Source of the DNA: a virus
Taxonomy: Duplodnaviria > Heunggongvirae > Uroviricota > Caudoviricetes
Virus record (IMG/VR): IMGVR_UViG_2693429662_000010
Strand: one strand, 5' to 3'
Length of the DNA: 4,415 nt
Shown here: positions 3,001 through 4,415 of the stretch, in pieces
How positions within the stretch are numbered: position 1 is the stretch's first letter
Layout: the number at the start of each line of letters is the position of its first letter
Made by a program: the position numbers

Positions 3001-4415
3001 ATATCCGGCCTATGCAGCGGCAAATTATATAAAGGGACGGGTTGATGTGAAGTTTGATATTGGTGCTGATGGTACTGTCACCCGAATTGAGTTTATCCGT
3101 TCAGAGCCGCACCATCTGTTTGATGAGCAGGTTGTAAAGGCGATGGCAAAATGGCGATTTGAGAAGGACAGGCCGCGTAAAGGCGTGAAGAAAACGTTTA
3201 TCTTTAGTCCTTCTGCACCCTGATTATTTCATCAGAAATTAATTATCACTCTGTTGTTATTCTGTACATTCCGGCTGGGTAAGTCTTGTTCCGCCGGGTA
3301 TGAAGATGAAATATTGTTGGAGGACAGTGGGTACCTGCTCCTGTAACCGAACGTTCATTTCTCGTTATTTGTCATGCTGGCCGGACGCAGATGCGTTGCA
3401 TCTGTTGCCAGCCTTCTCCTGCAGGCTTCAATAACCCACGCTGAAAAGTTACCGGAACCTTTATGTTCAAGGGCGATATTGATCTGTTCAATCATGTGAT
3501 TGGGGAAACGGATATTGCGGATTGTGGTTCTGCGGGTCCGGTTTTTCGATGACATTTTCTTTCCTCTGGTGACAAGCTATATGGAGAGGATTTTACATGG
3601 CTGTGCTTCGTACGTTACCGGGCAGAATCAAAACTCTGAACACCCGGCGGGTGAATGTCCTGAAGGGTGAACAGCGTCGGGTCAGTGGTAGTGCCCGGGT
3701 TTCCCTCAAGCGTCGTATCTGGCTGAGGGATGCCGGACAGTGCTGTCTCTGTGGGCGTGTGGTTGACCTTTGTGACAGTGAACTTGAGCACCGCATTGCA
3801 CTTCAGTTCGGTGGTGGTAATGAGGAGACGAATCTCTGGACGCTCTGTACCGAATGCCATCGACAAAAGTCTGCTCGTGAAGCGGCGAGTGGTATGCCAG
3901 ACCCGACGCTGCCGGAGGTGTCCGGAGGTAGTGGCAGAGCGGACGACATCATCGGACTGTAACCCGACCCGGGGGGGGGTATCATCCGGCGTAAAAAAAG
4001 ATCGCTTTGGACACCGCCCCCCCTCTCACGCAGAGAAAAAATTCCCGTTTCAGGGCAGTTAACATGTTAACTGGCTGTCCGGGCATTTTTGCGGTTTTTA
4101 TCTTTATTATTCAGTTTGTTGTGCGGAAAAAATGTTAACTGGCTTTTTCAGCAAATGTTAACCAGGCAGCAGTTAACATTTGCGGCATGAGACGCCGGGA
4201 AAAATGGGCTGAACCATACCCGGCTGAGTGCGTTATGGACCCGGGAGGAGGCTGTGCTGACAACGCAAAAACGAAAATTTGCGCTGGCGCTCATGTCCGG
4301 GAAAAACAAAACAGCGTCAGCCATTGCCGTAATGCCAGTCAGTTAAGCAACTGACTGGCTCTTTTTCGGGGCTGTGGGGTATTTCCAGGGCCTCTCCTTT
4401 ACCACTCTCGGGAAG

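Follow-up and report, generated by a model that had tools for sequence, protein, structure and literature searches.

The stretch of DNA analysed here (the window; 4,415 nucleotides, IMG/VR record IMGVR_UViG_2693429662_000010, class Caudoviricetes) is the late region of a lambdoid Escherichia coli prophage and carries on its minus strand a small gene of the ylcI/ynfO family, which diverges from the HNH endonuclease gene at the head of the packaging module (Table 1). It appears somewhat more probable than otherwise that YlcI is an Arc-like ribbon-helix-helix (RHH) dimer that serves as a small, probably autoregulating DNA-binding repressor, and that the nearby array of ATGTTAAC repeats is a cosB-like element. 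This departs from the original prediction, made from the sequence alone, in which the array was named as a candidate target of the minus-strand protein.

The ylcI Gene and Its Family

The minus-strand open reading frame (ORF; 66 codons, ATG start) is a real protein-coding gene under strong purifying selection: over codons 1–48, it differs from the homologue in phage lambda at 4, 1, and 24 first, second, and third codon positions, with 24 synonymous changes over 31.7 sites (pS 0.76) and 5 non-synonymous changes over 112.3 sites (pN 0.045). Its product matches the Pfam family DUF3950 (PF13132; E 4.6e-20, 71.7 bits, cut-off 25), the NCBIfam model YlcI_YnfO_N (NF041551; 35.3 bits, cut-off 30), and PHROG 949 (E 2.7e-32). 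Besides exceeding both curated hidden Markov model (HMM) cut-offs, it carries the family motifs, i.e., IRF and NFS-x-W in a protein of 50–80 aa, and lies in an Enterobacterales prophage context with lysis genes, HNH, and terS. Of 5426 complete E. coli genomes, 3407 contain stretches with 93–99% identity, as do 95 phage records, most of which belong to Shiga toxin (Stx)-converting phages; RefSeq records at this level of identity name the ORF “YlcI/YnfO family protein,” and in near-identical annotated records it is the sole minus-strand coding sequence of the stretch. The expectation of a single minus-strand gene of the YlcI/DUF3950 type was borne out, as was its distance of 41 bp from the HNH gene, which is set by the HNH ATG at 3597; the gene also has a good ribosome-binding site. 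The gene itself is an ordinary one, already annotated in thousands of E. coli genomes, and belongs to an uncharacterised yet widespread family; a y-ome review lists YnfO among the uncharacterised genes of the Qin prophage.

Residues 1–52 form a conserved module, in which a basic arm and an IRFP motif lead into a helix that a G-x-NFS turn joins to a second helix. I15, R16, F17, F37, W40, V41, and C45 are invariant in all three family alignments; the same holds for S38 in two and for N36 in one, with at least 90% conservation of both residues in the remaining alignments. Among phage variants, DNA homology ends at the start codon and at about window positions 3410–3421 (residue 45–48), which marks the N-terminal module alone as the conserved unit. 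The C-terminal tail is swapped by recombination.

The family is small (101 matches at E ≤ 0.001 in an exhaustive search of 1.84 billion cluster representatives) and occurs in two settings, namely lambdoid E. coli phages and satellites resembling P4 or phage-inducible chromosomal islands (PICIs). Its members keep their start, length, and motifs from Escherichia to Xenorhabdus, Proteus, and Gilliamella. Family members were found in 153 of 50,697 phage records; HK97 is not among the phage records listed with a member. In lambda, DLP12, Qin, and many Stx and other lambdoid prophages, the homologue is a small gene that directly adjoins cos and the packaging genes on their left side; in phages it always runs opposite to the late operon, and a DUF1398 gene often lies downstream of it. 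YlcI (DLP12, b4589) and YnfO (Qin, b4533) of E. coli K-12 and the lambda ORF belong to the same family, with 87% identity over residues 1–52, and share the position of the window gene as the last leftward gene before cos and terS, divergent from its neighbour. In these three elements, however, the gene diverges from a Nu1-type terS at a distance of about 390 bp, whereas the neighbour in the window is the HNH gene of an HNH + Terminase_2 module, across the much shorter gap. The window gene also differs in its C-terminal tail, lacks a DUF1398 or ybcW neighbour, and is preceded by unrelated DNA.

The lambda homologue (64 aa; NC_001416, complement 48109–48303, equal to positions 2710–2904 (-) of our locus L093) lies about 200 bp from the right cohesive end, and has no annotation in the RefSeq record and that of a hypothetical protein in some other lambda records. 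The right end of lambda is conventionally held to enter the cell first. Between this gene and cosQ, 68–102 bp upstream of the gene, lies a perfect 8-bp inverted repeat (ATCAATTA-N19-TAATTGAT, at about 48371–48405; L093, about 2972–3006), a candidate operator. Dozens of assemblies of unrelated organisms (Cohnella, Streptomyces, Pedobacter, etc.) include contigs, about 3.5 or 48.5 kb long, that carry the right end of lambda (ylcI-ybcW-ybcV-bor-Rz), most likely because lambda control DNA or the Nanopore control fragment contaminated the samples; one such contig is an “Arcanobacterium plasmid” of 3566 bp.

Predicted Fold and Similarity to Arc-Type Repressors

Structural models and profile comparisons suggest that YlcI quite probably has an RHH fold. 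Two AlphaFold models, the second of which was built from 69 diverse sequences, predict an extended N-terminus followed by helices at residues 19–32 and 37–56; the predicted local distance difference test score (pLDDT) was 65.6 and then 74.2, and the first model additionally has a low-confidence helix at residues 8–12. The top Foldseek matches of both models are RHH proteins, i.e., ParD2 and NikR for the first and TacA2 and NikR for the second. When the DUF3950 core was compared with an Arc/Mnt alignment in hhalign, a score of 18.7 was obtained (P 0.0012, probability 20%), which 1 of 150 column-permuted controls reached; against the single Arc sequence, the comparison was too weak (P 0.017). 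The alignment places TIRNIRFPNHMIEQINIALEHKG on PQFNLRWPREVLDLVRKVAEENG of Arc and matches, in register, the IRFP strand to the strand of Arc and the first helix to its helix A.

The closest parallel may be provided by Arc and Mnt of phage P22, Arc-family RHH repressors of the immI region. Like YlcI, these are small proteins encoded in a phage late region, and a basic arm at the N-terminus, an x-N-[IL]-R-[FW]-P strand, and two helices with a G-x-S/N turn would be common to them and YlcI. The similarity is weak, however: unlike Arc and Mnt, YlcI gives no significant match to the Pfam Arc model, and it does not stand divergent to an antirepressor operon: the gene divergent from ylcI is HNH, and the antirepressor-like Rha/ORF11CD3 gene of the window is parted from ylcI by a gene for a TonB-like protein. 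ParD2, TacA2, and the N-terminal domain of NikR, the best structural neighbours of the two models, differ from YlcI in that the latter has neither a toxin gene nor a metal-binding domain.

DUF3950 Genes in Satellites

Islands with an integrase, a primase, and a DUF3950 gene were found in Serratia, Klebsiella, Enterobacter, Pectobacterium, Xenorhabdus, Proteus, Gilliamella, and others. The DUF3950 gene is directed against both int and primase, and an orientation opposed to the neighbouring operon is seen in phages and satellites alike. Upstream of the satellite gene, a hairpin is followed by two 13-bp GGTG-N6-CAC repeats straddling an outward promoter (TTGACG -35), a T-rich spacer, a TATAGT-like -10 element pointing inward, a third repeat, a ribosome-binding site, and the ATG. 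Each region has two or three such repeats, overlapping the back-to-back promoter pair. Across satellites, the repeat and the eight residues ahead of IRF covary in sequence (partial Mantel r 0.64, p 0.0002, n = 19), whereas no covariation was seen for the remainder of the protein (r 0.14, p 0.18); an autoregulated repressor that reads DNA via its N-terminal arm would show such a pattern.

In several P4-like islands, the DUF3950 gene lies fully antisense within an ORF of 200–500 aa, with coinciding third codon positions (around position 6000 of loci L058, L065, L067, L075, L078, L079, L081, L084, L085, and L089). A short Icd/Kil-like ORF makes up the C-terminal ~60 residues of this long ORF, which extends it upstream. 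The idea that DUF3950 is an antisense shadow of the long ORF was rejected, since its start, stop, and motifs are kept where the long ORF is missing. Variability in the DUF3950 frame increases from codon position 2 over position 1 to position 3 (0.18, 0.28, and 0.56).

The ATGTTAAC Array

Five copies of ATGTTAAC lie between 4058 and 4179, compared to an expected 0.23, and none of 200 shuffles reached five; the array includes an 18-bp palindrome, CAGTTAACATGTTAACTG, at 4056–4073. The palindromes described earlier, here and at 2860–2876, are real; their proposed role as YlcI targets is not supported. The array is present in the 200 bp before terS in all 80 loci from viral contigs fetched with an intact TerS (three of the 80 have only three or four exact copies, and one of these begins inside the array). 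In locus L109, whose homology to the window starts at 3976, the array, terS, and terL follow directly after a tRNA-like sequence, without HNH and without ylcI. Conversely, ATGTTAAC was not found near ylcI of lambda, DLP12, or Qin. Because the array tracks terS, is present without ylcI, and is absent from lambda-type ylcI loci, it is assigned to the packaging module rather than to YlcI. As for the palindrome at 2860–2876, it adjoins the TonB-like gene and has no counterpart in lambda-type ylcI loci.

We interpret the array, from comparison of sequences, as the cosB-like recognition array for the small terminase subunit (TerS) of the HNH + Terminase_2 packaging module. A cosN-like core (CCGGC..GATCGC..GGACACCGCCCCCCCTCTCA in the window) is common to window 3976–4030, L109 (2723–2800), and L009 (1665–1790 (-)), a locus that contains a satellite with its own terS (46% identical), and the downstream repeats vary with the type of TerS: in L009, the same core (CCGGC..GATCGC..TGGACACCGCCCCCC.TCTCA) is followed by two AAAAGTTACAC repeats and no array. 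The array behaves like a cosB site in that the cutting core is shared while the repeats are TerS-specific. Work on Rpp of PICIs describes the same logic for lambda-type cosB (PMC6739421). As at lambda cosB and the HK97 TerS site, repeated short sites lie between the cos cut and terS and change with the type of TerS, with the nicking core kept. The record of phage Lys8385Vzw was opened between window positions 4024 and 4025, and the array spans +32 to +155 relative to this break. TerS of HK97 binds 15–29 bp downstream of the cos cut (PMC11331095), and the place of the array would match this if the Lys8385Vzw break is the cos cut; the cut position in the window is derived only from the opening point of this one record. 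The arrangement differs from that of HK97, where one 15-bp site lies at +15 to +29, in having five sites and another repeat sequence. Assigning the array to the cos/TerS site helps to define the packaging signal of a common group of Stx-type prophages.

Proposed Role of YlcI

The conserved part of YlcI would fold as an Arc/Mnt-like RHH dimer whose N-terminal arm and strand may recognise specific DNA sequences. Expression would come from a weak leftward promoter of its own at times when the late operon is silent, i.e., in the prophage or early in infection, and the protein would act as a repressor, probably at its own promoter region. Transcription of the K-12 homologue has been reported, as a convergent overlap of ybcW and ylcI in RNA sequencing data (PMC12288877). 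The best -10 candidate is TAAAAT at 3590–3595 (-), preceded at a spacing of 17 bp by the -35 candidate GTAACG at 3613–3618 (-), which has 3/6 consensus matches. The promoter had been expected within or beyond the 5' end of the HNH gene: the weak -35 candidate indeed lies in the HNH coding region, but the best -10 candidate falls within the 41-bp gap. The candidate promoter overlaps the HNH ribosome-binding site, start codon, and first codons.

Several observations weigh against this role. With respect to the fold, the models are monomers, in which the defining RHH beta-ribbon is invisible; the RHH matches in Foldseek have TM scores of about 0.5 and E-values of 2.6–5.1 and are non-significant; no Pfam RHH model, that of Arc included, matched YlcI or any of 38 alignment members; and a PDB sequence search gave a single match, the ribosomal protein uL16 (E 0.83), with none in a profile search. 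Among the 120 matches listed from a profile search of a collection of 5.8 billion proteins, only DUF3950 proteins were present, with no bridge to named RHH families. The RHH type put forward in the original prediction is plausible but weakly demonstrated by the models, the Foldseek ranking, and hhalign. With respect to expression, a consensus scan requiring at least 4/6 matches per hexamer found no strong promoter for ylcI, and a terminator scan found none for the gene, including the region between ylcI and the convergent TonB-like gene. With respect to DNA binding, no operator-like motif common to the window-type and lambda-type upstream regions was found, despite 87% identity of the presumed DNA-binding parts of the proteins; k-mers common to window-type, lambda-type, and satellite upstream regions were limited to 8–9-mers at chance level. 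The covariation of repeats and arm in satellites could result from mosaic recombination, as the arm codons lie about 70–100 bp from the repeats. Moreover, the satellite repeats could function by RNA pairing in an immunity system like that of P4, an RNA-level role being possible because the region resembles the P4 immunity region, with an Icd/Kil-like ORF and a conserved hairpin. The hairpin gave SymR-like Rfam matches of 36.7 and 29.3 bits, below the gathering score of 61, and at gathering thresholds neither C4, isrK, nor any other RNA was found in the window, in lambda, or in the regulatory regions of satellites. Finally, a literature search on YlcI, YnfO, DUF3950, DUF1398, and the repeat sequence returned no functional study; the published data found were limited to the K-12 transcript overlap and the y-ome entry for ynfO. 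Since lambda carries a copy of the gene, a knockout and electrophoretic mobility shift assays are feasible in this phage.

Alternative Roles

Instead of a free-standing repressor, YlcI might be an orphan antitoxin of the RHH type, or it might regulate a two-gene moron that has lost its partner gene in this prophage. The RHH antitoxins ParD2 and TacA2 are among the top Foldseek matches; in Qin and several other prophages, a DUF1398 gene follows 42–57 bp downstream on the same strand (ynfO-ydfO); and RHH antitoxins bind their partner through the C-terminal tail, which in YlcI is the variable part and changes along with the downstream module. In the window, however, the downstream neighbour is convergent and encodes a TonB_C lipoprotein, no co-oriented toxin gene is adjacent, and a search with PADLOC gave no defence-system match for YlcI, YnfO, or the TonB-like protein, nor a defence-system toxin match for DUF1398. 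A co-oriented 33-aa ORF (3257–3358), whose ATGA overlaps the ylcI stop, was considered as a partner and discarded: all four nucleotide differences in it change amino acids, and it is gone in other variants. As ylcI also persists alone in thousands of genomes, this explanation is improbable, in agreement with the earlier view that a partner toxin is missing.

A main role in cis is also unlikely. Leftward transcription of ylcI would collide with rightward transcription, either as an excludon or to insulate the lysis/moron genes from the packaging genes, and the protein would be secondary. The constant opposition of ylcI to the surrounding operon and the missing terminator towards the TonB-like gene would fit such a role, and the convergent overlap of ybcW-ylcI reported from K-12 RNA sequencing is scored as an excludon (PMC12288877). 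However, strong purifying selection and motifs conserved across genera imply that the protein itself is selected.

We also consider doubtful the broader idea that DUF3950 proteins are the repressors of a bidirectional early switch in P4/PICI-like satellites, binding GGTG-N6-CAC through their N-terminal arm, and that the lambdoid copy is a factor of cross-talk in the conflict between helper and satellite. If it were true, the helper copy might silence resident satellites, or be the signal that they sense. The family is common to lambdoid helpers and P4/PICI-like satellites and holds a regulatory-looking position, which could bear on satellite silencing, and satellites hijack, or even integrate into, the packaging genes adjoining the lambdoid DUF3950 copy. 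One such case is L009 (E. coli CP027459), where a satellite at about 1–8700 is inserted in terS of a prophage with the ylcI-HNH-terS layout, a fragment of the prophage terS remaining at 8696–8881. This satellite encodes an integrase, a D5-type primase, its own Terminase_2 terS, a capsid gene, and two DUF3950 genes; upstream of the one that encodes 60 aa are two TGGTACGTACCA palindromes around a TATAAT. In a preprint on helper-embedded satellites, terS is not listed among the target sites in helper late genes (10.1101/2022.07.18.500453).

Two satellite homologues, P0211 (L009, 6001–6363) and P0197 (L008, 4714–5103), are fused to a TerS-type N-terminal helix-turn-helix (HTH) domain that is 62–66% identical to residues 2–54 of the helper TerS, the rest of TerS being missing. 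These fusions could compete with the helper TerS for cosB; in the cross-talk scenario, they would occupy the helper cosB array and block helper packaging. They also bear on the possibility that YlcI itself is a packaging accessory or regulator binding the ATGTTAAC array beside cos, given that the packaging module adjoins ylcI in every phage context and that GTTTAAC-type repeats upstream of the P0211 fusion gene resemble the array. Yet the lambda, DLP12, and Qin loci lack the array despite 87% identity of the proteins over residues 1–52, L109 has it without ylcI and HNH, the repeats follow TerS, as seen in the L009 satellite, and in the fusions it is the TerS-like HTH that GTT(T)AAC-like repeats accompany, the L008 fusion having ordinary GTGCACAAACAC repeats. 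A packaging role of YlcI is accordingly very unlikely.

That ylcI is a chance or decaying ORF without function, as its shortness, the lack of a detected strong promoter, and the missing annotation in the lambda RefSeq record might suggest, can be practically dismissed in view of the excess of synonymous changes, HMM scores above curated cut-offs, and a start, length, and motifs kept across genera.

Other Features of the Window

Table 1. Features of the window, with positions counted from its first nucleotide.
Feature	Position	Strand	Remarks
End of a gene	21–497		
Holin-like ORF	Between the 21–497 gene and the lysozyme gene		
Lysozyme gene	863–1360		
Rz-type gene	1345–1794		
Rha/ORF11CD3 regulator gene	1944–2561	Opposite to ylcI	Antirepressor-like
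Lipoprotein gene with TonB C-terminal domain	2882–3223		Convergent with ylcI
ylcI/ynfO-family gene	3355–3555	-	66 aa; DUF3950 at residues 21–50; variable C-terminal tail
Divergent intergenic region	3556–3596		41 bp; contains both ribosome-binding sites (ylcI AGAGG; HNH GGAGAGGA at 3583–3590)
Shine-Dalgarno sequence of ylcI, AGAGG	3563–3567	-	7 nt before the ATG
Weak candidate sigma-70 promoter of ylcI	3590–3618	-	Predicted from the sequence
HNH endonuclease gene	3597–3962	+	First gene of the packaging module; Pfam HNH E 5.2e-06, PHROG 589 E 9.3e-43
Non-coding stretch	Between the HNH gene and terS		
cosN-like core	3976–4030	+	CCGGC..GATCGC..GGACACCGCCCCCCCTCTCA; G and C runs
ATGTTAAC array	4056–4183		Five sites (18-bp palindrome and three further copies); cosB-like
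Terminase_2-type terS, 5' fragment	4254–4329	+	About 25 codons, GTG at 4254; cut by IS4

Homology to intact prophages ends at the junction 4329/4330, and positions 4330–4415, including a hairpin at 4334–4359, match IS4 copies elsewhere. The prophage is probably packaging-defective because terS is broken by this IS4 end after about 25 codons.

Immediately 5' of the start of the TonB-like gene lies the perfect 8+1+8 palindrome AGAATAAG/CTTATTCT (2860–2876), and the gene looks like a moron with its own operator-like site. Its product matches Pfam TonB_C with E 5.8e-15; the PHROG label of this lipoprotein family, “Rz-like spanin,” appears to be a mislabel.

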